Shown here: piece after piece, positions 2,968-36,226 of the stretch
Numbering within the stretch: the first letter of the stretch is position 1
How the letters are laid out: every line of letters starts with the position of its first letter
Virus record (IMG/VR): IMGVR_UViG_2724679538_000004
Span: 45,799-109,798 of that record
Strand: one strand, 5' to 3'
From: a virus
Taxonomy: Duplodnaviria; Heunggongvirae; Uroviricota; Caudoviricetes
Length of the DNA stretch: 64,000 bases
Translations under genes and position numbers: made by a program
The notes under the pieces: generated by a model
Seen by the model: only the letters and a program-made list of their open reading frames with translations
Database searches by the model: none
What the model was told of the DNA's origin: nothing

Positions 2968-5283
2968 ATGATAAGCATCGTAAAACGTAACGGCCAAACA
3001 GAGCCGTTATCCGAAGAAAAATACAACCGCGTCGTAATGTATGGCGTAGAAGGTATTCGTGGCGTAAGCGCATCAGCTGTAGCAATGGGAGCTGCGGCCA
3101 GTATTTTTGATGGGATGACCACCAGCCAGTTGCATGAGGCTTTGGTTAAATCTGCTGCGGACCTAATCTCTCCAGAGACACCAAACTACTCACAAGTAGC
3201 CGCACGTCTGAACATTTTCAAAATCCGCAAGCATGCATTCGGTCAATACGACTATCCGAATTTCTATCAACACATTGTTAAAAATGTCAACAAAGGCGTT
3301 TATGACGCAGATCTACTGAAATACTACTCGGTCGAAGAAATAGAGGAGCTTGGCATATACATTAAGCCTAAGCGTGATGAGCTTTTTGGTTATGCAGCTA
3401 CTGTTCAGCTACATAGCAAATACCTTGTCCAGAATCGTGTGACTGGAGAAATCTACGAGGGGCCACAACATATTTATATGCTGGTGGGCATGTGTCTGTT
3501 CCAGAATTGGGAAGACGACTGCGCTGGCAAAACTCGTATGGAGATGGTCAAAGGCTTCTATGACATCACCAGTACGTTCAAATTGTCCTTGCCGACCCCA
3601 ATCATGGCAGGCGTTCGTACTCCTACTCGCCAGTTCTCCAGTTGTGTGCTGATTGAGTCTGGGGATAGTCTGAAAGGGATTAGTGCAGCTTCAGCCGCAA
3701 TTATCGACTACGTTTCACGTCGTGCTGGAATTGGTATTGGTTTTGGCCGCATACGTGCGCTGGGAAGTGAGATCCGCAATGGTGAAGCCACCCATACCGG
3801 AGTTCTTCCATTCCTGAAGCATTTCCAGACTGCTGTTAAATCTTGCTCGCAAGGTGGTGTTCGTGGTGGAGCAGCAACAGCGTTTTACCCGATCTGGCAT
3901 CTTGAAGTTGAAAGTCTGCTGGTGGTGAAAAACAACCGAGGTATCGAGGAAAACCGTGTTCGCCATCTTGATTACGGAGTAATGATCAATCGCCTCATGT
4001 ATCGCCGACTTGTTCGAGGCGAGAACATTACTCTGTTCAGTCCGCATGATGTGCCTGATATGTACGAAGCCTTCTTTACAGATCAGGATCTGTTTGAAAA
4101 GCTGTACCATAAATACGAAGCCGATGATTCAATCCGCAAGAAGTCAGTACCTGCCGTTGAGCTGTTTTCATCTCTGATGCAGGAACGAGCGTCCACTGGC
4201 CGCATTTATATTGCGAACGTCGACCATATTAATGAGCATGGTGCTTTTATTCCTGCTCTTGCACCTGTTCGTCAGTCAAACCTGTGCATGGAGATCACCC
4301 TACCCACTCGTCCACTGACATTTACCGACGATCCGAACGGTGAGATCGCGCTGTGCACTTTATCAGCTTTTAACCTAGGAGCCATCCGTTCACTGGAGTC
4401 TCTTAAAGAGGTTGCGTTCTATGCCGTGGCTGCACTGGATTCGCTACTGGATTATCAAGACTATCCGATGGATGCAGCGAAAGTGCCTGCCAAAGCTCGT
4501 CGTAGCCTGGGGATTGGTGTAACCAACTTTGCTTATTACCTGGCAAAGAATGGCGTTCGTTATTCTGATACCGCTGGCAATAAACTGGTGCATGAAACGT
4601 TTGAAGCTATCCAGTATTACCTTCTTGATGCCAGTTGCCGACTTGCGGAAGCAAAAGGTGAATGTGACTGGTTTGAGCAGACCAGGTACGCAATTGGCCA
4701 GTTGCCGATCGACCACTACCGTTCTTCATTAGACGAAAGTGACGAAACTAACTTTGAATTAAAGATGCCGTGGGAAGAACTGCGTGAACGAATTGCAAAA
4801 CACGGCCTTCGCAATTCCACGCTGACGGCACAAATGCCATGTGAGACTTCCAGCCAGATCACTAACTCCACCAACGGCATTGAACCGCCTCGTGGCCCGG
4901 TGTCAGTGAAATCTTCTAAGGACGGCATCGTCAAGATGGTCGTGCCTGAGTTTGAAAAATTGAAGGAACAGTATGAATACCTGTGGGATATGCCGGACAA
5001 CCGCGGCTATCTGACAAAGGTGGCGATCATCCAGAAGTTCTTCGACCAGGCTATTTCAGCCAATACCAACTATGACCCTTCTCGCTTTGAAGGCGATAAA
5101 GTTCCAATGATGACGCTACTGTCAGATTTGCTTCTTGCCTACAAGATGGGAGTTAAAACGCTTTACTACCACAACACCAGAGATGGTGCAGGAAAGCGTG
5201 ATGACGACGAACCGCAGAATCCACTGGCGCAAGCTGTAGCCGTCGAGCCAGAAGATGAGTGCGACGGAGCCTGCAAAATCTGA
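2968..5283 (+). CDS. nrdA: ribonucleoside-diphosphate reductase alpha subunit (class Ia)
   Basis: 771 aa; N-terminal ATP-cone-like region; catalytic SNLCMEI motif; overall resemblance to E. coli NrdA. Confidence 0.9.
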   Translation: MISIVKRNGQTEPLSEEKYNRVVMYGVEGIRGVSASAVAMGAAASIFDGMTTSQLHEALVKSAADLISPETPNYSQVAARLNIFKIRKHAFGQYDYPNFYQHIVKNVNKGVYDADLLKYYSVEEIEELGIYIKPKRDELFGYAATVQLHSKYLVQNRVTGEIYEGPQHIYMLVGMCLFQNWEDDCAGKTRMEMVKGFYDITSTFKLSLPTPIMAGVRTPTRQFSSCVLIESGDSLKGISAASAAIIDYVSRRAGIGIGFGRIRALGSEIRNGEATHTGVLPFLKHFQTAVKSCSQGGVRGGAATAFYPIWHLEVESLLVVKNNRGIEENRVRHLDYGVMINRLMYRRLVRGENITLFSPHDVPDMYEAFFTDQDLFEKLYHKYEADDSIRKKSVPAVELFSSLMQERASTGRIYIANVDHINEHGAFIPALAPVRQSNLCMEITLPTRPLTFTDDPNGEIALCTLSAFNLGAIRSLESLKEVAFYAVAALDSLLDYQDYPMDAAKVPAKARRSLGIGVTNFAYYLAKNGVRYSDTAGNKLVHETFEAIQYYLLDASCRLAEAKGECDWFEQTRYAIGQLPIDHYRSSLDESDETNFELKMPWEELRERIAKHGLRNSTLTAQMPCETSSQITNSTNGIEPPRGPVSVKSSKDGIVKMVVPEFEKLKEQYEYLWDMPDNRGYLTKVAIIQKFFDQAISANTNYDPSRFEGDKVPMMTLLSDLLLAYKMGVKTLYYHNTRDGAGKRDDDEPQNPLAQAVAVEPEDECDGACKI

Positions 5284-15681: not shown

Positions 15682-15740
15682 TGCGTGTCGGAGTTGAGGC
15701 TTTAGAAGCCATAGTTCATGTAATTCTGTTTACTTCACTT

Positions 15741-25998: not shown

Positions 25999-26292
25999 AT
26001 GTCTGCTTTTTAACCAAACATACCCTCAATACTGCAACATCAGTGTCTTGCGAATCAAGATAGTGTGTATAGATTTTTCATGCAAGTGCATAAGTCTGTG
26101 GATAACTCAGGAAGGAAAAAGTGACTTCCGCGCACTTTAGGCCGGACAAGGCCTTCGAAAAAGTCAATGGGAAGAAAAAATTTGTTAAAAATAACGTTTG
26201 TTTGAATTGTATATTTTATACCTGTCAATAGTTAGCATCTTATTAACATCTTTTTTAAGAGACAGAGTTTAAAAACATGTCGCTCCAACATA

Positions 26293-26312
26293 TACTGTAT
26301 GTACATACAGTA
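26293..26312. promoter_or_regulatory. LexA (SOS) box
   Basis: Perfect 20-bp palindrome TACTGTATGTACATACAGTA (CTGT-N8-ACAG) about 15 nt upstream of the UmuD'-like start. Confidence 0.8.
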
Positions 26313-26328
26313 TTAAGAGGCGAGTATT

Positions 26329-26718
26329 ATGGGATTCCCATCTCCTGCAGCGGATTATGTTGAAAGCCGTATTTCTCTTGATCGGCAGATAATTAGACAT
26401 CCTTCAGCGACCTACTTCCTGCGAGCGGCTGATAGCCATCACCGCGAAGGAATATTGCAGGGGGCGCTGCTGGTGGTCGATTCTTCACTAACTCCGGTTG
26501 ATGGTTCACTGCTTGTATGTGCTATTGATGGGGAATTTCGTGTAAAAAAATACCGTAAGTATCCGCGTCAGTACCTGGAGGATTTAAGAACTGGCAAGAA
26601 GGAAGCATTGCCAAAGGATGACGATGGATGCACTGGCAGTACTGCCGTGTTTGGTGTCATCACTCACATTATCAACGACGCAAGAAGTGGCGAATTTGAT
26701 GATTGTCCTGTGATGTAG
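26329..26718 (+). CDS. umuD: UmuD'-like protein (pre-processed form, HumD-like)
   Basis: Begins MGFPSPAADYVE, i.e. at the position of the UmuD Cys24/Gly25 self-cleavage site as I recall it; Ser/Lys dyad positions and GEFxVKK, VFGV(I/V)xH(I/V) conserved; AAGAGG RBS. Confidence 0.8.
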   Translation: MGFPSPAADYVESRISLDRQIIRHPSATYFLRAADSHHREGILQGALLVVDSSLTPVDGSLLVCAIDGEFRVKKYRKYPRQYLEDLRTGKKEALPKDDDGCTGSTAVFGVITHIINDARSGEFDDCPVM

Positions 26719-26723
26719 ATAGA

Positions 26724-26747
26724 AAGCCCTCGTTTGTATGAGGGCTT
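26724..26747. terminator. bidirectional terminator between convergent genes
   Basis: AAGCCCTCGTTTGTATGAGGGCTT. Confidence 0.5.
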
Positions 26748-26762
26748 CTAGGTAAACACAAA

Positions 26763-27506
26763 TCACTGCATGTTGCCGAATTTTTTGTTAAGGCTTTTTC
26801 GTATTGTCTCTATGGTTTTCTCCCTATCTGAATATAGTTCGCTAACTACATAGTCCATAATCTCAAAAGCACCTTCGATATCTTTGATCCGAACTTCATC
26901 AAACGTATGACTGCCTGCATTCCCCAAGAACTTTATCGCCAAAAGATTTTGAGCAAGTTTGCTGCCCTCTTCCGGGATTTTTTCGATACGATGGTGCAAT
27001 CGGATTGTCTTACCTTTATCATTTTGCGTAGGTATCCCCATAGAGGTAAGGATATTTTCTACAGCGATTCTGATTAGGTTTGCTGCGGCACCTTGCTGCA
27101 TTAAAAAAATGGAAAAAGCAGCTTTCAGGGGGCCACTTACTTCATCCGGGCAGTTCTCTGGAATTTGAAAAACATTCAAGGAAGGAACAAAGCAAAGAGG
27201 TTTGTACCATTGATAATATTCGTCTGCCATTTCCTCTGGTTGGTAATCTCTATCCCATCCTGCCTTTCCTACGCAGGCAACCGCTTCGCCACATTTTGCT
27301 CGTGAACATTTGGCCATACAGCTGAAATAGGACTCAGACATATCGTAATCAAACCAATCTTCATTTTGTGCTTTCCTGGTACCTAAAGACTCCTCTTCAA
27401 CAAAACTATCTTGCATGATTTCCAGAGTCTTTTGTCCGCAGACCGGACAAGGCCAGTCCACATGTTTATCGCTGTAAAATCGATGGGAAATTTTATGAAT
27501 AGCCAT
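26763..27506 (-). CDS. zinc-ribbon protein; C-terminal region resembles DUF4145-type module (tentative)
   Basis: N-terminal CPVCG ... C..C; C-terminal LAIKFLGNAGSHTFDE; opposite strand to all neighbours. Confidence 0.5.
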   Translation of the reverse strand: MAIHKISHRFYSDKHVDWPCPVCGQKTLEIMQDSFVEEESLGTRKAQNEDWFDYDMSESYFSCMAKCSRAKCGEAVACVGKAGWDRDYQPEEMADEYYQWYKPLCFVPSLNVFQIPENCPDEVSGPLKAAFSIFLMQQGAAANLIRIAVENILTSMGIPTQNDKGKTIRLHHRIEKIPEEGSKLAQNLLAIKFLGNAGSHTFDEVRIKDIEGAFEIMDYVVSELYSDREKTIETIRKSLNKKFGNMQ

Positions 27507-27651
27507 TTATTTCGCTCCATGCATATTGGCCGAAATGAGTTCAAACGATACCAATATGAATAATAGATGCGTTACTTTAAGACACTGTGGATTAAATACA
27601 AAGCATGGCTACCAACAGAAGGAACAAAAGATACTGGTTACAAATACCCGT

Positions 27652-27718
27652 AAATAAATTGTTTTCTACCTTTTCTTAATTGTGATAATAAACCACACAA
27701 GAAAACAAATTGTTTAGG
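27652..27718 (+). promoter_or_regulatory. sigma70-like promoter (TTGTTTTC, extended -10 TGTGATAAT) followed by operator CAAGAAAACAAATTGTTTAGG
   Basis: Read directly; same architecture at 21727-21785. Confidence 0.5.
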
Positions 27719-27728
27719 AGTGGCAAAA

Positions 27729-28028
27729 ATGCTGAACATTACCCAAGCCTACCAGGTGGCATTGATTAGTGCATCTCATACATCAGAGGAAGATGCTCGC
27801 CGATTCATGATCGCAAGCAATGAGCTGGATTGGGTTTCACAAATTGACGGCGGTTGTATTGTCCACGCCTGGTTACAGGATGATGTCTGGAAAGACAACT
27901 TGCGTCGATATGGTATATCCGAAGGCGCAATTGCTAACATTCAGAAAGTACTTGATGTAGGCTTTGACTCTGTACATTTCGATTGTGGCGCACCGGTCGT
28001 TGAAGGGCTTGAGTGCTGGAACTGGTAA
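27729..28028 (+). CDS. hypothetical protein
   Basis: ATG 27729 with AGGAG RBS. Confidence 0.45.
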   Translation: MLNITQAYQVALISASHTSEEDARRFMIASNELDWVSQIDGGCIVHAWLQDDVWKDNLRRYGISEGAIANIQKVLDVGFDSVHFDCGAPVVEGLECWNW

Positions 28029-28064
28029 TCCGGCAAACGTTCCATACTATGTAACGGAGAATTT

Positions 28065-28250
28065 ATGCTTAAAGAGGACTCATATCTACTAAAGGCGCTT
28101 GAAATGCGTGGCGTTGAACCTACAGTGAAAAACGCTCACGATATCTACCTTCAGTTTTCACCGGAGCTGAAACGGCTCATAAATCAATACGGGGTTAATG
28201 ACTCAAGTGTTAAAGCAATGATAGATGATGAATTAGACCATCTCATCTAA
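28065..28250 (+). CDS. hypothetical small protein
   Basis: 61-aa ORF with GGAG RBS. Confidence 0.35.
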   Translation: MLKEDSYLLKALEMRGVEPTVKNAHDIYLQFSPELKRLINQYGVNDSSVKAMIDDELDHLI

Positions 28251-28402
28251 TCGTTTCCTATGATAATGGTTTTCACTTTGAGATTGTTATTTTTCATAGC
28301 CAAAGCTGATGTTTGTGGAAGGTGGATTGATAAACGGATGCGTATTTAGGTTATACAAGTGAGAAAATTGATAATATATAAACGCGATTTTTATGTGATG
28401 GA

Positions 28403-28972
28403 ATGGATGTAATGGAAACCCAGAACCAACAAACAAAACCTCTGAATAACATTTATGCGTGGATTCTAGCGTTCATGCCTTTCTTCTTTGCAGTATCGCC
28501 GGAAGAGTATACCAATTACGCTATTATAATTGGGGGTGTAACTACCATCGGTTTGTTAGTAGCTGACAGAATGGCTCTATCGGAGTCTGGCTGTGAACCA
28601 CCTTCAATTCTATGGGGGGTATTCCTCCTGCCTGTCTATCTCTGGAAGCGCGCGACTATTACAAAAGGCAGCAGAGTGCCATTTATCATAATCGTTGCGT
28701 CGCTGGCTTGGGTTATCTTCATCGGCATCCCACACAAGGACGAGGTTGCTCTTGAAGAAGCAGCCTGCCCTCTCGTGACAACTATTCTGAAAGAGAATAA
28801 CGGTTCGACTGCACCAAAATGTATGAAGGTGACAATAGAGGACAAGGTGACGGATAAGTTCTATAGAGCAACGGCTACACTAGACAATGGTAATGACATT
28901 AACATTACTCTGGAACTTACCGGCGACAGGAACTTCTACGTCCGTGTTCCAAATGTTTATCTGAACAACTAA
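28403..28972 (+). CDS. membrane protein (multiple hydrophobic segments)
   Basis: Several predicted transmembrane stretches. Confidence 0.45.
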   Translation: MDVMETQNQQTKPLNNIYAWILAFMPFFFAVSPEEYTNYAIIIGGVTTIGLLVADRMALSESGCEPPSILWGVFLLPVYLWKRATITKGSRVPFIIIVASLAWVIFIGIPHKDEVALEEAACPLVTTILKENNGSTAPKCMKVTIEDKVTDKFYRATATLDNGNDINITLELTGDRNFYVRVPNVYLNN

Positions 28973-29100
28973 CGGTTGCAACTTATTGATAATGGCGGTC
29001 ACAATTTGATTCTTTTCTATAAGAATCCGTTGATCGCCACTACTCCCCTTCCATACCTGCAACCACATCCTTAAATATCAATTAGTTATAGTTGTTTATA

Positions 29101-29124
29101 CCAATAAGAAAACAACTAAATAAC
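29101..29124 (+). promoter_or_regulatory. promoter/operator family motif (variant)
   Basis: CCAATAAGAAAACAACTAAATAAC; no convincing gene downstream. Confidence 0.3.
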
Positions 29125-29313
29125 AGATCAACGAAATGTCAATGCTTTCGCCCGATTTGGTCTATAAAATTGACGTTTTCACACATCACTTCTTATACCC
29201 GCAATCCTACGCAGCAGACAGCGCCACAGCGTCCAATTTTCACCACAGATGACCCAACAACTACCAATAAAAACACACGCTCAAAATCGCTCCCGTTGCG
29301 TTACACAACCATA

Positions 29314-29356
29314 TAAACAACTTGTTTTCAGGCATAACAAAACAACTAAATAACAC
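29314..29356 (+). promoter_or_regulatory. promoter/operator family motifs (TAAACAACTTGTTTTCAGG and CATAACAAAACAACTAAATAACAC)
   Basis: Immediately upstream of the A/C-rich noncoding tract. Confidence 0.35.
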
Positions 29357-29900
29357 ATATGCCATTCCCCAAAACAACCAACCTCTTTATGGCAGGCTAC
29401 CGAAAAGACCCACCTCTTCTTCCCAGGCTACCGGACAACCAACCTAACTTTCACAGGCAATTCGAAACCTCCATACGCGCGATACCCACGACACGCCATT
29501 CCCCAAATAGCGAAGAACCACCGAAACCCCAACGAAGCTTGTAACCGCAAGGATTTCCTCAATCCCAAAAGACACGAAACAGAACATTCGAGGGAAACGC
29601 CATTACCCAATACACGAATAACTACAAAAGCCTTTCACGCACTCCATACAAGCAACTCAAACACAATAACGAAAGGAATCGCCCACCTGCCATTACTCCA
29701 TACACGGAGAAGAACAATCACCAAAACGTCGAGAACAACCCAGAGAAGAACCACCGCAAAACGAACGAAACCATATAAACCGACAGAGAGAACTACACAC
29801 CCAATTCACCAACAGAAATAGTCGCCGTATAGAACGTTCAGGGAGGAGTGAGTATTAACGCCTATAGAGAGCTTGAGACAGATAAAACACGAAGAAAACA
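29357..29900 (+). other. A/C-rich, G-poor noncoding tract with dispersed GCCATT(A/C)C(C/T)C...ACACG repeats (candidate untranslated transcript)
   Basis: No credible ORF on either strand; composition skew visible by eye; bounded by promoter-like motifs upstream and a hairpin/T-run downstream. Confidence 0.35.
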
Positions 29901-29946
29901 CAACATGTATAACGGAGAAGCCAGGTATGTATAAGTGGGGAGTGGA

Positions 29947-29968
29947 GGAGGGGTGTCGCCTCCTTTTT
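29947..29968 (+). terminator. terminator-like hairpin plus T-run
   Basis: GGAGG-GGTGTCG-CCTCC then TTTTT. Confidence 0.45.
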
Positions 29969-30032
29969 CGTATTTATTCAACTCCTGATTTTATCCCCCC
30001 GTAAAACCCCTACGGTCAGCCTTCGGTCCATA

Positions 30033-30173
30033 CAGGGAAAAGGTTGCATCCCGCTACAGAAACGGCTGGGTTGCCTTCGGGGAACGGCTGGAGGTTTTCA
30101 GGGAAACGGTCGAGTTGCCTGTGTGGGTTTCGGGAAAAGGCTCGATGCCGGTTCAGGAACGGTGGCGTACCGG
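30033..30173. repeat. about six tandem imperfect ~22-bp repeats of (C)AGGGAAA(A/C)GG type (iteron-like)
   Basis: CAGGGAAAAGG, CGGGGAACGG, CAGGGAAACGG, CGGGAAAAGG, CAGGAACGG read in series. Confidence 0.55.
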
Positions 30174-30475
30174 TATAGCGAGAGGGAGAGTTGCGGCTAC
30201 CCACCTGTAATGTGCGGGAAGAAGGGAGACTCTCACGTATAGGCGAACCTACTTCCCGCTGGATTCCCTCTGAATGCCCAGCTACAGCGTAATTGTGCCA
30301 GACAGTCCGCGGGTCACAATCGATTTCAGTAGGTTTTCGGGGAGAGGATTATTCTGCCCACCAGCTCCCTGCGGCCAGTAAATCAGAATAATGTAAAAAG
30401 TGCCCACGGTACTGAACCTGAAAAGTCACTACTAAAACTGCATTTACCGGAATAAAACTCTTTTTCACCTATGTG

Positions 30476-30518
30476 TTATTGCGATAATAACACCAACGAG
30501 AAAACAAGTTGTTTACGG
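30476..30518 (+). promoter_or_regulatory. promoter (-10-like GCGATAAT) plus operator CGAGAAAACAAGTTGTTTACGG
   Basis: Read directly. Confidence 0.45.
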
Positions 30519-30525
30519 AGTGGTA

Positions 30526-30837
30526 ATGAATACCTCATTGGTTCTTGGTCTTGCAGAAGGTCAGGACAGAAAAGAAAAGCCAACTTTGATGGGACACCTC
30601 ACATTGTTGGATATCGTAGCGAACGGAACTTCTATTCGACTGTTTCGTGAAAAAGCTATTACCTTCGACAAAGTGAATTTAACGCGCTATGTGATGGTTG
30701 TTCGTCGCCAGCGAGGAAGAGGGTGGATGTCAGTTCAGAAAATGTGGCCAGAGGACCAGCTTGAACTGGCACTGATGGAAGTGAACCGCGTAGCCCAGCA
30801 AGAAATCCAACGAGCTTCTGTTCAGGCAGTGGCTTAA
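30526..30837 (+). CDS. hypothetical protein
   Basis: ATG 30526 with ACGGAG RBS. Confidence 0.45.
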   Translation: MNTSLVLGLAEGQDRKEKPTLMGHLTLLDIVANGTSIRLFREKAITFDKVNLTRYVMVVRRQRGRGWMSVQKMWPEDQLELALMEVNRVAQQEIQRASVQAVA

Positions 30838-30871
30838 GCATGTGCAAGCAGTAGTTAGTCGAGTGTACGAC

Positions 30872-30900
30872 AGCCCTGATTCCTTACAGGGCTTTTTTGT
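30872..30900 (+). terminator. intrinsic terminator
   Basis: AGCCCTGATTCCTTACAGGGCT plus TTTTTT. Confidence 0.6.
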
Positions 30901-30924
30901 ATTGTAAGTAACTACTTACAATAA
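30901..30924. promoter_or_regulatory. copy of recurrent palindrome (ATTGTAAGTAACTACTTACAATAA)
   Basis: Inverted repeat about 40 nt upstream of the next start. Confidence 0.35.
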
Positions 30925-30963
30925 TAGAATTACCTCGTTCGTTAACTTACATACAGGGAGAGT

Positions 30964-31362
30964 ATGATGAGCGTAAAACGCGAAAACCTGACAATCGATA
31001 TGTACTATGCCTCTGAAAAAGCAGAAGACGAAGCGGTTGCAAAAATTACCGTGATGATTCGTGACAATGAATCTGGTGCAGAGGTACAAACAAGCACTCT
31101 TGTACGCACAGGAACAGGCGAAGAGGCGACTTATGCCGTCGGCTATCAGAATATCAACGATGCCACGGACCCGCTGTTACTTAAACTGGAAAACCACTTC
31201 CGCAGTGTCGATAAGGTGCTTTTTGAGAAGCTGATGGAAGCCGTGGATGAGGTGTATACCTCAAACCTCAACAGCAATACTACCTGGATGGGACAGTATG
31301 GCCTGCGAATTACCACCGGCGCTCAAGTAGAAACCGTCATCCCCGAAAGCGTATTCGCTTAA
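30964..31362 (+). CDS. hypothetical protein
   Basis: 132-aa ORF with GGGAGAG RBS. Confidence 0.45.
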   Translation: MMSVKRENLTIDMYYASEKAEDEAVAKITVMIRDNESGAEVQTSTLVRTGTGEEATYAVGYQNINDATDPLLLKLENHFRSVDKVLFEKLMEAVDEVYTSNLNSNTTWMGQYGLRITTGAQVETVIPESVFA

Positions 31363-31372
31363 TCCTCTTTGA

Positions 31373-31399
31373 ATGGCGCGTAAACCGCGCCATTTTCTT
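31373..31399 (+). terminator. intrinsic terminator
   Basis: ATGGCGCGTAAACCGCGCCAT plus T-rich run. Confidence 0.55.
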
Positions 31400-31405
31400 A
31401 TGCCC

Positions 31406-31424
31406 GATAACAATTTGTTTTCTG
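31406..31424 (+). promoter_or_regulatory. promoter/operator family motif (GATAACAATTTGTTTTCTG)
   Basis: Read directly. Confidence 0.4.
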
Positions 31425-31443
31425 CCTTATCTGATTTGTGAAA

Positions 31444-31854
31444 ATGATTTCACTGAAGCAACTTAATAAGGAAACCATCATGGAACTTGATATCTATATC
31501 GAGACGCAGCCTAAAAACGATCTGAATAACGAGGAATCCAGAAGACAGGTTGCTTACTTCCGCAAGTTCAATGCGCTCGTTGGGTGGATGGAGCGCAACG
31601 TAGGTGAAGTCGAAAATTGTGAGCTTTTAGAATTAACGATGAATGACATTTGTTTTCTGAAAGCTCATTTGATGCACATAAACGAAAGTAATTGCGAAGA
31701 GTACTTACCTACACAGGAAGGGTTTTTCTTCGGCAGTCAGGAGTACGATGAAGGTTACTGGCATGACGTGGATAAGCTGAAAAAACTGGTGGAAGACCTG
31801 ATTAGGAACCACGACTTCCACAATAACAGACTGACATTTTGCGCCTGGTGGTAA
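31444..31854 (+). CDS. hypothetical protein (start uncertain; an ATG at 31480 has the better RBS)
   Basis: ORF in the expected cassette position. Confidence 0.4.
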   Translation: MISLKQLNKETIMELDIYIETQPKNDLNNEESRRQVAYFRKFNALVGWMERNVGEVENCELLELTMNDICFLKAHLMHINESNCEEYLPTQEGFFFGSQEYDEGYWHDVDKLKKLVEDLIRNHDFHNNRLTFCAWW

Positions 31855-32136
31855 ATATGGGGGATTTTAGAAAGCGTCTTAAGGAAAGAACTGAGCAGGC
31901 CAGGAGGCAAAACGCGTTTTCTGTTATCCGGTACGCGAAACAATTCAGTCGGAACAACAAGTCAGTTGAGGAAAAGATCCTCAGCGTAATAGGACGATAA
32001 TTATTGAGGCTACCAGCATGGATAGCCTCACTGACTTTTCTTATAACCGAAGGTTAGTTTTGAAACCTGGCTAATGACTTCCAGTACCTGTCTTGATAAT
32101 TCAGCCTGCATTAACTTCTTTTCTGCCTTATCTACA

Positions 32137-32175
32137 CTGCGATAATTACACCAACAAGAAAACAACATGTTTACG
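32137..32175 (+). promoter_or_regulatory. promoter (-10-like TGCGATAAT) plus operator CAAGAAAACAACATGTTTACGC
   Basis: Read directly. Confidence 0.45.
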
Positions 32176-32185
32176 CAGTGAGGAT

Positions 32186-32473
32186 ATGCACATGACTGAT
32201 TTCACCATTACTACCAAAGCACAAAATGTATTCCTTGAATCATGGCTGGACTTGCCGGAAACAGAACAGCAAGAAATGGATCATGTGGAATATGACGAGC
32301 AGGTAAGCACGCGATTCTTCCACTTTGAGGGCTGCGTTTACGATATTGCCGACTTCATGCGAGATGACCGCTTCCCTGAATGGCACGCAAGCTATCCACT
32401 TAACGCCTTCGCCATGCTGATGATCCGTGTGGATGACTCAGGGGATACCATCGATGTCGGTTTGCTCCACTAA
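32186..32473 (+). CDS. hypothetical protein
   Basis: ATG 32186 with GAGGAT RBS. Confidence 0.4.
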   Translation: MHMTDFTITTKAQNVFLESWLDLPETEQQEMDHVEYDEQVSTRFFHFEGCVYDIADFMRDDRFPEWHASYPLNAFAMLMIRVDDSGDTIDVGLLH

Positions 32474-32503
32474 ATAATAAGGGACCACCAGCATTGGTGG
32501 CTC

Positions 32504-32776
32504 TTATATCATTTTTGCGAGCTTATTCATTTTGGTGAAGTCAATTGGCAATTCGGCCAAAGGTATCAAATAGTCTTTTTGTGCCCAGAAGTTTGGAGAT
32601 CTGCCCACTACATACGAAAGCCGATAAGCGTCTTCATCGGTAATCGGCTTTCTTTGTTCTAGTATAGCTTCAGCATAGTCGATACTAACCGCCATGCTGC
32701 GAGCCAATAATTCAACCCCAATACCGTAATCGTCATAAATGGCATCAAGAAATTTTTTCACATCAAGTTGGGACAT
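32504..32776 (-). CDS. XRE-type helix-turn-helix DNA-binding protein (putative regulator)
   Basis: LARSMAVSIDYAEAILEQRKP resembles an HTH motif; lone minus-strand gene among plus-strand cassettes. Confidence 0.45.
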   Translation of the reverse strand: MSQLDVKKFLDAIYDDYGIGVELLARSMAVSIDYAEAILEQRKPITDEDAYRLSYVVGRSPNFWAQKDYLIPLAELPIDFTKMNKLAKMI

Positions 32777-32861
32777 ATGATTATCTCCTCAAATAAGCCA
32801 AGTTTTTATTATATAACGATATTTTTCGATTGTGGGTAATATGATTACACCCGCAGGCTAA

Positions 32862-32945
32862 AAACACCAACCTCTTACCTCCAGGCTACCGATTAACCCA
32901 CCTGTTCCCGTCCGGCTACCGCAACTTTCCACTTTGACGCCTTAT
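32862..32945. repeat. paralog of the 29375-29465 element (contains two CAGGCTACCG-type direct repeats)
   Basis: Aligns by eye with 29375-29465. Confidence 0.5.
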
Positions 32946-32953
32946 TCGTACAA

Positions 32954-32992
32954 CGATAATTAACACCAACAAGAAAACAATTTGTTATTTAC
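32954..32992 (+). promoter_or_regulatory. promoter (-10-like CGATAAT) plus operator CAAGAAAACAATTTGTTATTTACG
   Basis: Read directly. Confidence 0.45.
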
Positions 32993-33007
32993 GATAAGGA
33001 ATTAATC

Positions 33008-33490
33008 ATGAATTTTATCGTTACTGTAAACGCACCCGCACATGGCAATATCGCTGTAACGTTCTCTGACATTGAAAAACGAGTACTTGGTGCATGGCGC
33101 GACAATGAGACGGTAGAACTGTCAGCACAAGAAAAATGCATTATTGCACGCGACATCATTGGTAATCGTCGTTACTCGCGGGTATTTGAGAAAGCGTATG
33201 TGGTAAATTCTGGATTCGGAACGTTCGTCTTTCCGGTGCGCTCCGGGCGATTCTGCCAGTCCAAGCTGATTGAGTTCGCTACGCAGATTTCTGTCTGGAT
33301 TAAAACTCAATCGTCGTTCAAATTTTCCGACGATGAAGCAGTATCGCAGGGGATGCGGATCGCCAACAATGCGATAAAATGCAAAAACATTACGTATGCC
33401 GCTGGCGTTGACACATGGAAACTGTTTTGCGCTAACTTTATGCTGAATGTATACGCAAGCAACCGCATCCACATCCTTGATGGCGTGTAA
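33008..33490 (+). CDS. hypothetical protein
   Basis: 160-aa ORF with AAGGAA RBS. Confidence 0.45.
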   Translation: MNFIVTVNAPAHGNIAVTFSDIEKRVLGAWRDNETVELSAQEKCIIARDIIGNRRYSRVFEKAYVVNSGFGTFVFPVRSGRFCQSKLIEFATQISVWIKTQSSFKFSDDEAVSQGMRIANNAIKCKNITYAAGVDTWKLFCANFMLNVYASNRIHILDGV

Positions 33491-33539
33491 CTGAGAAGAG
33501 GGCCAGAAACGGCCCTTTCTCTATAGCCACCAGCTGCCG

Positions 33540-33657
33540 CAGGGAAATTTTCAGAAACGGCGAGGAACGCATTCATGAACCGACGGGAAACGGCCAAGAT
33601 TTTTTCGGGAAACGGCTGCATTCGCCTTTATGTAGAAAAACATCGGGAAGCTGGTGG
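33540..33657. repeat. second array of GGGAAACGG-type repeats, flanked by CCACCAGCT / AGCTGGTGG inverted repeat
   Basis: CAGGGAAA, CGACGGGAAACGGCC, CGGGAAACGGCTG, CGGGAAGCTGG read in series. Confidence 0.5.
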
Positions 33658-34082
33658 AATCCAACCAGCGGTTGTCGGACAGGTGAGCGCGGAAAATAAT
33701 GATGACTTTCGTCGCCTGAGACATACAGATTTCTTTCATAGCGTAATCACATACGTGATTAAGTAGTGTGATTATGTGAAAAATCACGCGCACATAATAC
33801 GCGAGCGGATAAAGAACAACACAAAATGCCGATCCGCGCCGACAAATAAACGCGGATCACATAGCAAGACTAATAACCAATGATTAGCCATACATTATAA
33901 CGCAATATAACGCGATTTAAGCGCGTTAATGTGTTAAGTAATGGGTATGTACTGGTAAGGATGTAAAAGCGCGTCTATGGTGTTATTTTGGCGCTTATTT
34001 TTATGTTGTTGGAGTGAGTCAAAGACAATAAAAAAACGCGCCATTGATGGCGCGTTATTGTGGAAGTATTGGAAACGAAAAA

Positions 34083-35629: not shown

Positions 35630-36226
35630 TCAAAAAGGCAAAATTCGTTCAACCCAATCGAACAAAACAACTATTTTTCTACCGTTCTCGACACGTAGTG
35701 TAACCTGACAAGCATCTGCGCCTGCTGACACCCCCTCAATTTCACGGCCATCCGCCATGTACACCCTTATAGATTTGTTTGCTTTATGGGCCTGGTTGCA
35801 AATTGCAAAAAAATCACGGCGTGATGGCCGATTGTCAACATAATCAGGGTGAACTGTTAATCGACCTTTGAAATCGTGAGCGATACCGTCAACCACACCT
35901 GATTCAATTGTACTAATGCGTTCAAGTGGAAGCCTTATACGATTTTCTTTGTCAAAAGGGGCTGGGCAAAGATCAACTTTGTTACGAGATGGCATGAGAC
36001 CATAAACGTACATGCAAAACGCCTGGCCATCTTCGAGAGTGGCCCTTACAGGAATTTGTTCTCTGCGCCAGAACATCAGGAGGTTTTCAATATTCTTATA
36101 ATCTCGCGGCCAGACCTCCGCTGGCACGCCGTAGGTGATGTCTTTAGTCGTCATGTCATTATAAAGTTGTTGGCAATATATCCATTGTACCATCCCAGGT
36201 TGTGAAGACCCGATATGTTTTAGCAT
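35630..36226 (-). CDS. hypothetical protein (start uncertain because it overlaps the upstream gene)
   Basis: 198-aa ORF. Confidence 0.45.
   Translation of the reverse strand: MLKHIGSSQPGMVQWIYCQQLYNDMTTKDITYGVPAEVWPRDYKNIENLLMFWRREQIPVRATLEDGQAFCMYVYGLMPSRNKVDLCPAPFDKENRIRLPLERISTIESGVVDGIAHDFKGRLTVHPDYVDNRPSRRDFFAICNQAHKANKSIRVYMADGREIEGVSAGADACQVTLRVENGRKIVVLFDWVERILPF

Follow-up and report, generated by a model that had tools for sequence, protein, structure and literature searches.

The window analysed here, a 64,000-nucleotide (64-kb) stretch of the Caudoviricetes record IMGVR_UViG_2724679538_000004, contains a gene-free region of about 1.5 kb, within which a tract of the plus strand is strongly dominated by A and C (Table 1). 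The module formed by this tract and its flanking elements is real, strongly conserved, unannotated and noncoding. We tentatively propose, with a probability of roughly 0.35, that the tract acts in cis as a loading zone for the termination factor Rho, similar to Rho utilization (rut) sites, and that it would insulate the early genes from co-directional cargo genes upstream. Among the mechanisms considered it is the most economical.

With Escherichia phage Cyrano (pLF82) the region shares 93% identity, SSU5 was matched too, and 835 plasmid records in PLSDB match the region, with Escherichia, Klebsiella, Enterobacter, Salmonella, Citrobacter and Cronobacter as hosts; those records with typing that were inspected were mostly IncFIB and non-mobilizable. 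Judged by these matches, the window belongs to an SSU5/pHCM2-type phage-plasmid, a kind of element common in Escherichia, Klebsiella, Enterobacter and Salmonella. The phage has its own replisome genes, and in a complete relative of 111 kb the region is 75 kb away from repA with its iterons and about 13 kb from the terminase genes. Literature searches on SSU5/pHCM2 transcription, origins and RNA-seq yielded no account of the module, and a query on noncoding features was uninformative.

Composition and conservation of the A/C-rich tract

The original prediction described positions 29314-29968 as a promoter-to-terminator unit for a candidate noncoding RNA, dominated by A and C and compositionally the most anomalous stretch of the window. 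Sliding-window composition and skew confirmed the anomaly. A+C amounts to 72.6% in 29336-29835 compared to a mean of 49.7% +/- 3.2% in 500-nucleotide (nt) windows, about 7 standard deviations above it, and this is the most extreme 500-nt A+C stretch of the 64 kb. The plus strand of 29314-29968 consists of 38.5% A, 28.2% C, 17.3% G and 16.0% T, that of 29360-29800 of 38.8% A, 33.3% C, 14.3% G and 13.6% T; the values for the whole window are 28.4, 21.3, 24.3 and 25.9%, respectively. The limits of the interval had to be shifted around the A/C core, as the skew begins already at about 29200 (about 115 nt left of 29314) and ends at about 29830, and the last 140 nt (29830-29968) are G-rich instead of A/C-rich. 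Within the tract the GC skew ranges from -0.37 to -0.49 and the AT skew from +0.29 to +0.59, at a GC content of 44-51%. An excess of C over G of at least 0.15 per 78-nt window extends almost continuously over 29156-29733, the longest such plus-strand runs in the window. The A/C-rich strand is the strand of the flanking early genes, and the tract is followed by a G-rich array of 22-nt repeats. The motif CTTATAC(C) occurs once per strand, at 29193-29200 (+) and 29926-29933 (-); the two copies face each other, bracket the tract and are both conserved.

Conservation was followed in nine relatives fetched first, then in 24 non-redundant sequences and in the deep lineages L134 and L138. A pattern scan of viral contigs gave mostly chance matches, to which a BLAST filter was applied, and a search for related loci seeded with one protein found nothing. 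In all nine first-fetched relatives A+C amounts to 0.68-0.75, at nucleotide identities down to about 66%. Among the 24 non-redundant sequences, blocks conserved to at least 90% alternate with variable stretches; skew and composition are unchanged at 30-40% nucleotide divergence, A<>C exchanges being the commonest substitution class. L134 and L138 kept the skew despite flanking proteins of 33-58% identity. One deep lineage is a Klebsiella plasmid of a different replicon type with a flanking protein 33% identical, another is a metagenomic contig, whose FljA-like protein is 58% identical to that of the window and matches one named from Nissabacter archeti. The maintenance of a strand-specific composition during sequence turnover points to selection on a single-stranded property rather than on duplex sites, and argues for a single-stranded function of the tract, for which RNA would be the most likely form.

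The layout is shared as well. It comprises a boundary inverted repeat around TTTCTATAAG, an operator copy, TTGAC(A/G)-N17/18-TTAYACC, the A/C tract (650-800 nt, containing operators as well as GCCAT units), a G-rich block, an array of GRAACGG units, Chi and the next early promoter. A gene-free gap of about 1.5 kb is found at the same position in every relative examined, including L134 and L138, and the NCBI annotation pipeline PGAP called no gene in it in any of the RefSeq relatives examined. The only exception is pMT1 of Yersinia pestis, in which the flanking genes are kept and the tract is missing. Apart from pMT1 the skew was present in all relatives examined; a search for similar tracts in related phages had been suggested in the original prediction.

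Table 1. Position of the tract and of the features in and around it, in window coordinates
Feature	Position	Strand	Remarks
Left-boundary inverted repeat TGGCGGTCAC ... GTTGATCGCCA around invariant TTTCTATAAGA (29014-29024)	28993-29039	+	
Operator motif copy 1: TATAGT (29087-29092), AGTTGTTT (29090-29097)/AAACAACT (29110-29117), AAGAAAACAA (29106-29115)	29087-29128	+	
Inverted repeat GTCAAT (29138-29143)/ATTGAC (29169-29174) and candidate promoter TTGACG-N18-TATACC (29170-29199)	29138-29199	+	
A/C-rich, G/T-poor noncoding tract	29200-29830	+	composition, conserved skew
Operator motif copy 2: degenerate -10 TTGCGTTACA (29296-29305), operator AAACAACTTGTTT (29315-29327), half-site AACAAAACAACT (29336-29347)	29296-29358	+	
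Four GCCATT units GCCATTMCYCMA, starts 29361, 29495, 29599, 29689	29361-29717	+	
31-nt tandem, three units (A/C)CCACCTCTT-N6-CAGGCTACCG-N5	29369-29460	+	
GAGAAsAAC units at 29707, 29731, 29743	29707-29751	+	likeness to operator left half
Right-end block AATAGTCGCCGTATAGAACGTT	29817-29838	+	conserved
Variable segment with ~50-nt insertion limited to the E. coli clade	29839-29926	+	mean column conservation 0.2
Invariant GTATAAGTGGGG (29929-29940), hairpin GGAGGAGGGGTGTCGCCTCC (29944-29963), then TTTTTCG	29929-29971	+	
G-rich array, six GGGAAA(A/C)GG(C) units, 22-nt spacing (one gap 31 nt), ending CCGGTATAG	30035-30178	+	
Chi GCTGGTGG	30358-30365	-	conserved position, even in distant L134
Next canonical early promoter/operator (TGCGATAAT 30480-30488; GAGAAAACAAGTTGTTT 30498-30514)	30447-30515	+	serves gene 30520-30837; right end of gene-free region

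Coding potential and predicted RNA properties

The only plus-strand open reading frame (ORF) of at least 60 amino acids (aa) in the tract is located at 29359-29544. A stop-free frame of 155 codons (29354-29821) has no start codon and owes its length to the poverty in T. Every frame is broken by alignment indels of 1, 5, 10 and 11 nt, and the tract exhibits no 3-nt periodicity beyond that caused by its composition. The startless frame, the frame-breaking indels and the lack of a PGAP call rule out a coding gene, a frameshifted gene and a decayed remnant of one. The absence of a credible ORF noted in the original prediction therefore holds, and its alternative of a decayed coding sequence can be dismissed. 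Signals for translation are scarce, too: the tract contains 6 start codons (35 +/- 7 elsewhere) and 13 stop codons (30 +/- 6), the fewest of any 631-nt stretch in the window in both cases, and no pair of Shine-Dalgarno sequence and start codon.

The minimum free energy (MFE) predicted for the 631 nt is -78.9 kcal/mol for the plus strand and -166 kcal/mol for the complementary strand; the plus-strand RNA is thus predicted to be almost unstructured. Fold z-scores against shuffled sequences were -1.8 for the plus strand (20 shuffles), +0.5 for the minus strand and +1.3 for the G-rich part, revealing no excess structure, and none of the covariance models of Rfam 15 matched 26000-34000 on either strand at E <= 1. 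Both results speak against a structured RNA. Pairing between the tract and the G-rich array over a long range was rejected as well, since the global duplex energy lies within 1-2 standard deviations of shuffles; local complementarity comprises 14 nt at 93% and 26 nt at 77%, and is lost in pLAO4 according to an alignment read by eye. A leftward promoter or an R-loop primer transcribed from the G/T-rich strand was discarded because no promoter-like minus-strand site was found.

Possible role in Rho-dependent termination

C-rich, G-poor RNA that is unstructured and untranslated is an ideal loading substrate of Rho, and transcription into such RNA should be terminated unless Rho is countered. Rho loading sites are expected in C-rich, G-poor RNA of at least about 70-80 nt with little secondary structure and no ribosome cover; the tract has this composition over a sufficient length, a low predicted folding energy and hardly any start codons. 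Being C-rich, G-poor and, by prediction, almost unstructured, it is therefore rut-like, and its composition, predicted fold and excess of C over G bear out this part of the original prediction. It resembles rutA/rutB of the Rho-dependent terminator tR1 of phage lambda in being C-rich, G-poor, untranslated and little structured by prediction, and also in its placement, with co-directional genes before it and genes to be kept silent after it. In contrast to rut sites of about 70-80 nt the tract comprises about 600 nt, is depleted of U, too, and carries conserved repeats and operator copies; its dependence on Rho is what we infer.

According to this proposal RNA polymerase would enter the tract rightward, coming from co-directional cargo genes or from weak operator-linked promoters at 29087-29128 and 29296-29358, and would synthesize about 600 nt of RNA that can presumably neither be translated nor folded. 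Rho would be expected to load on this C-rich, G-poor RNA and to stop transcription short of the conserved early genes, the first of which starts at 30520; the intrinsic terminator at 29942-29971 could serve as a backup in the E. coli clade. The module would then form a transcriptional gate that insulates the early lytic operons against a variable cargo hotspot, with the conserved one-directional repeats as probable sites for a factor modulating the gate. If this is true, it illustrates how a mobile element can keep transcription of the cargo upstream away from its lytic genes.

In nine of ten lineages the upstream gene has the same direction as the tract, and its end is no more than a few tens of nt away from the left-boundary repeat; the upstream gene content varies among relatives. 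This area looks like an anti-defence or cargo hotspot, since genes encoding UmuD-like, DUF4145 and DUF5983 proteins neighbour a 61-aa ORF (28065-28250, +) with a sub-threshold Pfam match to the RecBCD inhibitor gp5.9 of T7 (E 0.005; 17 bits, cutoff 24.5).

Expression values were taken from RNA-seq of LF82 (Cyrano) lysogens (S1 Table), which are given per annotated ORF; the centre of the tract is located outside any annotated feature. The upstream gene CYRAN_102 (upstream of 28972) reached 57 fragments per kilobase per million (FPKM), the pseudo-ORF CYRAN_103 (about 29092-29450) 0 FPKM in LB and at most about 14 elsewhere, and the pseudo-ORF CYRAN_104 (about 29930-30335) about 14 FPKM (PMC9928086). 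The region thus appears to be silent in the plasmid state, and a lysogen FPKM of 0 over 29092-29450 in the 93%-identical Cyrano indicates that the tract is not a constitutive RNA. The difference between 57 FPKM upstream and 0 over 29092-29450 is consistent with a Rho loading zone. The same applies to the lack of the tract in pMT1, which we take to be defective for phage growth.

Other observations weigh against it. A rut site requires composition only, yet the GCCATT units, the 31-nt tandem and a 24-nt tandem are conserved, and 600 nt is many times the length of known rut sites. The FPKM is zero already over 29092-29200, upstream of the tract, which could be explained by termination or processing at the left-boundary hairpin. 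The 31-nt tandem is found also upstream of another promoter beside a gene resembling helix-turn-helix (HTH) regulators, a position suiting a DNA operator. Finally, no tract transcript, 3' end or Rho dependence was observed in the per-ORF RNA-seq of lysogens.

Promoters, operators and boundaries

The canonical early promoter of this phage is TGnGATAAT, followed 11-12 nt on by AAGAAAACAA-N-TTGTTT. Such promoters are present at 15740, 17295, 21773, 27699, 30498, 32156 and 32971, each upstream of a gene. The wider family includes 31400 and exhibits an extended -10 TGnGATAAT/GAAAAT, an operator at about +4 to +25 and often an upstream TTGTTTTCT half-site. The palindromic operator occurs at nine exact sites around the complete 111-kb relative. 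In this it resembles the dispersed C1 operators of the phage-plasmid P1, as the palindrome AAACAA-N-TTGTTT is scattered at early promoters, with two copies in the region described here; the C1 operators differ in sequence, and the two copies here are detached from a functional -10.

Copy 2 corresponds to the copy of the early promoter/operator motif placed at 29314-29356 in the original prediction. The motif copy itself is real, 29322-29358 being 81% identical to 29092-29128, and so is the operator; the extended -10 TGnGATAAT is missing at 29296-29305. As the operator is kept and the extended -10 is not, 29314-29356 represents an operator with at best a weak promoter. In the Enterobacter/Salmonella clade the -10 position of copy 2 reads TATATT. 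In copy 1 the core AAGAAAACAA is invariant in the relatives, and the -10-like TATAGT is confined to the E. coli clade. L134 and L138 retained one or two palindromic operators inside the tract.

The candidate promoter TTGACG-N18-TATACC is separately conserved, is located exactly where the skew begins and is unique in the window. It did not pass a sigma-70 scan, as its -10 does not end in T. Its counterparts are TTGACA-N17-TTACAC in L134 and TTGATC...CTTATACC in L138. In the inverted repeat GTCAAT/ATTGAC overlapping it the hexamers are conserved and the spacer is variable.

The left-boundary inverted repeat starts some 20 nt past the point where the upstream gene stops and is almost invariant in the 24 non-redundant relatives. 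In L134 and L138 its arms are changed in sequence (GTCAACCTCT/AGAGGTTGAT and GTCAA../GTTGAC) with complementarity kept. No U-run follows the repeat. An RfaH ops element (GGCGGTAGnnTG) was excluded, as 28994-29005 reads GGCGGTCACAAT and the GGCGGT arm is missing from L134 and L138.

Regarding the terminator predicted at the right end, the hairpin and U-run at 29942-29971 are real and terminator-like in the scan. They form a good, canonical intrinsic terminator in the E. coli clade only; in other clades the U-run is 20 nt off, and the consensus fold of 18 relatives reaches -3.7 kcal/mol with almost no covariation. The invariant part of this segment is GTATAAGTGGG...GAGGGG..TCGC.

The operator copies also raise the question whether the tract is an evolutionary by-product, consisting of duplicated and decayed early promoter-leader modules, which are A/C-rich (e.g. 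ATAACACCAACAAGAAAACAA), and retained only as homologous sequence by which recombination is anchored beside the cargo hotspot. Both copies indeed align with canonical promoter-leaders and have a degenerate -10, half-operator-like units are repeated in the tract, and relatives are mosaics with differing gene content upstream. Over 28973-30520 the relative L114 and the window share 93% identity on the left and 75% in the tract, and the right part of L114 is 93% identical to the Enterobacter clade. Such mosaic identities within the gene-free region indicate recombination within the module. Neutral decay, however, would erase the skew as well as blocks conserved to at least 90% across genera, and the GCCATT units have no counterpart in canonical leaders. 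We consider such an origin very unlikely. L004 is another relative with a mosaic gene-free region. In large Klebsiella IncHI1B/IncFIB fusion plasmids a truncated remnant of the region is present; in L135 (K. pneumoniae pGH27TC_fusion, 4001-4342) only the first ~340 bp (window ~29070-29406) are found, beside restriction-modification and DUF262 genes.

Repeats of the tract, G-rich arrays and Chi sites

The conserved parts of the tract are not explained by composition alone, as they contain repeat units in one direction only. All repeated cores listed in the original prediction are real (GCCATTCCCCAA at 29361 and 29495, GCCATTACCCAA at 29599, GCCATTACTCCA at 29689), the first being located 18 nt downstream of the position of ~29343 given there. 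Four exact copies of the GCCATT core compare with 1.7 expected in the whole window at one mismatch. Each lineage has 3-6 of these units, always on the plus strand and with variable, unphased spacing, and the motif was not found elsewhere in the complete 111-kb relative. GAGAAsAAC, spaced by 24 nt in most clades, is present in 3-6 copies per tract compared to 0.2-0.4 expected in five lineages (P <= 0.007 each, for a pattern defined post hoc). The CCGTATAG motif of the right-end block is found again where the G-rich array ends (30170-30178).

The core of the 31-nt tandem can also be written CACCTCTT-N6-CAGGCTACCG. A second 31-nt CACCTCTT..CAGGCTACCG array (32861-32924) directly precedes the early promoter of gene 33008-33490. 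This array lies in a divergent region beside a 90-aa HigA/HTH-like gene at 32504-32776 (-) (TIGR02607, E 8e-8, below cutoff).

The G-rich array is conserved in the relatives, in L134 and in L138, and has no excess RNA structure. A second GGGAAA(A/C)GGC array with 22-nt spacing is present at 33555-33618. Both arrays adjoin Chi sites and a (C)CGGTATAG / CTCTATAG motif, and their spacing is iteron- or centromere-like. Chi (GCTGGTGG) occurs 16 times in the 64 kb compared to 1.3 expected from shuffles; further sites near the arrays are 33527-33534 (-) and 33650-33657 (+). A Chi-related role of the tract was rejected, because the nearby Chi does not have the orientation required for this.

These arrays bring up the possibility of a cis element acting at the level of DNA. 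The tract, perhaps together with the G-rich array, might be bound by proteins at multiple sites, as duplex or single strand, and serve in packaging, as a centromere-like site or as the lytic origin. Direct and inverted repeats are frequent throughout the 1.5-kb gap, the G-rich array has an iteron-like spacing of 22 bp and a second copy 3.5 kb away, and the 31-nt tandem is found once more ahead of a different early promoter beside the HTH-like gene; the silence in lysogens and the phage's own replisome genes are also compatible with this idea. The placements of the 32861-32924 tandem and of the G-rich arrays fit DNA-binding sites; they leave the composition of the tract unexplained. Duplex sites, replication or packaging do not account for a strand-specific depletion of G and T over 600 bp across deep lineages. 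With a GC content of 44-51% the tract is not AT-rich and therefore not an unwinding element, a genome-scale switch in GC skew is absent at this position, no initiator-like gene adjoins the region, and the spacing of the GCCATT units is unphased. RepA iterons or an incA-like locus were ruled out, since the iterons ((T/A)ATCCACTGTAGTGAG) differ in sequence and repA is about 75 kb away. A function at the DNA level is improbable in our view.

FljA-family regulator and a possible trans-acting RNA

The conserved gene at 35630-36151 (-), annotated as "transcriptional regulator", belongs to the FljA family (Pfam Flag1_repress, E 2.5e-83) and its product is 38-39% identical to bona fide phase-1 flagellin repressors. 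The structure predicted for this homologue contains two Hfq-like Sm domains and no HTH, and the gene is expressed in lysogens. FljA acts post-transcriptionally by blocking the translation of fliC mRNA (PMC2652032). Control at the RNA level is thus plausible in these elements, and a homologue modelled with two Hfq-like domains suggests that much of the early regulation takes place there. The protein is a candidate ligand of unstructured A/C-rich RNA, although any link to the tract is what we infer.

This leads to the possibility that the tract acts in trans. After induction, operator-linked promoters would give rise to an unstructured A/C-rich RNA of 600-850 nt, which titrates an RNA-binding protein like a sponge or decoy. 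Candidates for this protein are Rho, as proposed in the original prediction, host Hfq and the tandem-Sm FljA-family regulator of the phage; its titration would relieve termination or a block of translation, so that the phage enters lytic growth. Two early operator copies in or beside the tract, the silence of the tract in lysogens and the expression of the FljA homologue there, with its predicted tandem Sm domains and the post-transcriptional mode of action of FljA (PMC2652032), are in line with this. So are the half-operator-like GAGAAsAAC units, with 3-6 copies in place of 0.2-0.4 in five lineages, and the GCCATT units, which vary in number and spacing in one orientation as expected for sites on flexible RNA. 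In the E. coli clade the intrinsic terminator would define a discrete RNA.

Several results do not agree with a sponge. In the lysogen data no transcript was seen, the -10 elements are degenerate in the clade of the window, the terminator is conserved in the E. coli clade only, and an untranslated C-rich RNA should itself be shortened by Rho. The motifs recognized by candidate ligands are not enriched beyond composition or expectation. A CsrA sponge was ruled out by 4-11 GGA compared to 4.7-9.8 expected (z -1.8 to +1.6, 24 relatives), and the predicted fold of the tract presents no motif in hairpin loops. As to distal-face motifs of Hfq, the counts of (ARN)n/AAN motifs equal the dinucleotide-shuffle expectation in six of seven lineages, but composition alone still gives 3-12 (ARN)3 sites per tract. 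Mimicry of the fliC 5' untranslated region (UTR) of E. coli or Salmonella was also discarded, as neither the similarity (local alignment P 0.28-0.71) nor the shared 9-mer ACCCAATAC (P 0.19) is significant. We consider a sponge unlikely. More specifically, a long early post-induction RNA depleted of G and U that represents a new class of phage regulatory RNA, acting in trans by means of its one-directional repeats as a high-capacity sink for Rho or for the tandem-Sm FljA repressor and flipping the switch from plasmid to lytic growth, appears distinctly unlikely to us. If a sponge RNA were true, it would be a new kind of phage switch in a clinically widespread family of phage-plasmids.

The tract shares with the sponges CsrB, CsrC and RsmZ (CsrA) and CrcZ (Hfq/Crc) a length of several hundred nt, the noncoding status and multiple short motifs in one orientation; it differs from them in the lack of an Rfam match, of enriched GGA, of ARN or AAN in excess of composition and of motifs displayed in hairpin loops. 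For a Rho loading zone, precedents for a modulating factor exist. The Rho-antagonising RNA element (RARE) in the leader of Salmonella mgtCBR and the antitermination that Hfq mediates at Rho-dependent terminators are cases in which RNA elements or Sm-like proteins modulate Rho. In the element described here, a rut-like tract is paired with a predicted Hfq-like tandem-Sm regulator, which might act on it.

The fliC 5' UTR, on which FljA acts, is similar to the tract in being A/C-rich and G-poor; it forms a leader beside a ribosome-binding site (RBS). Unlike the fliC leader, the tract has no RBS and no gene, and its similarity to it is not significant. The leader and RBS of gene 33008-33490 (32951-33012; CGATAAGGAATTAATCATG), on the other hand, resemble the fliC RBS region of Salmonella (TGATAAGGAAAAGATCATG), with an alignment score of 27 compared to 13.8 +/- 2.4 in shuffles (P < 0.002 before correction for 16 tests). 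The FljA homologue of the phage may naturally target gene 33008.

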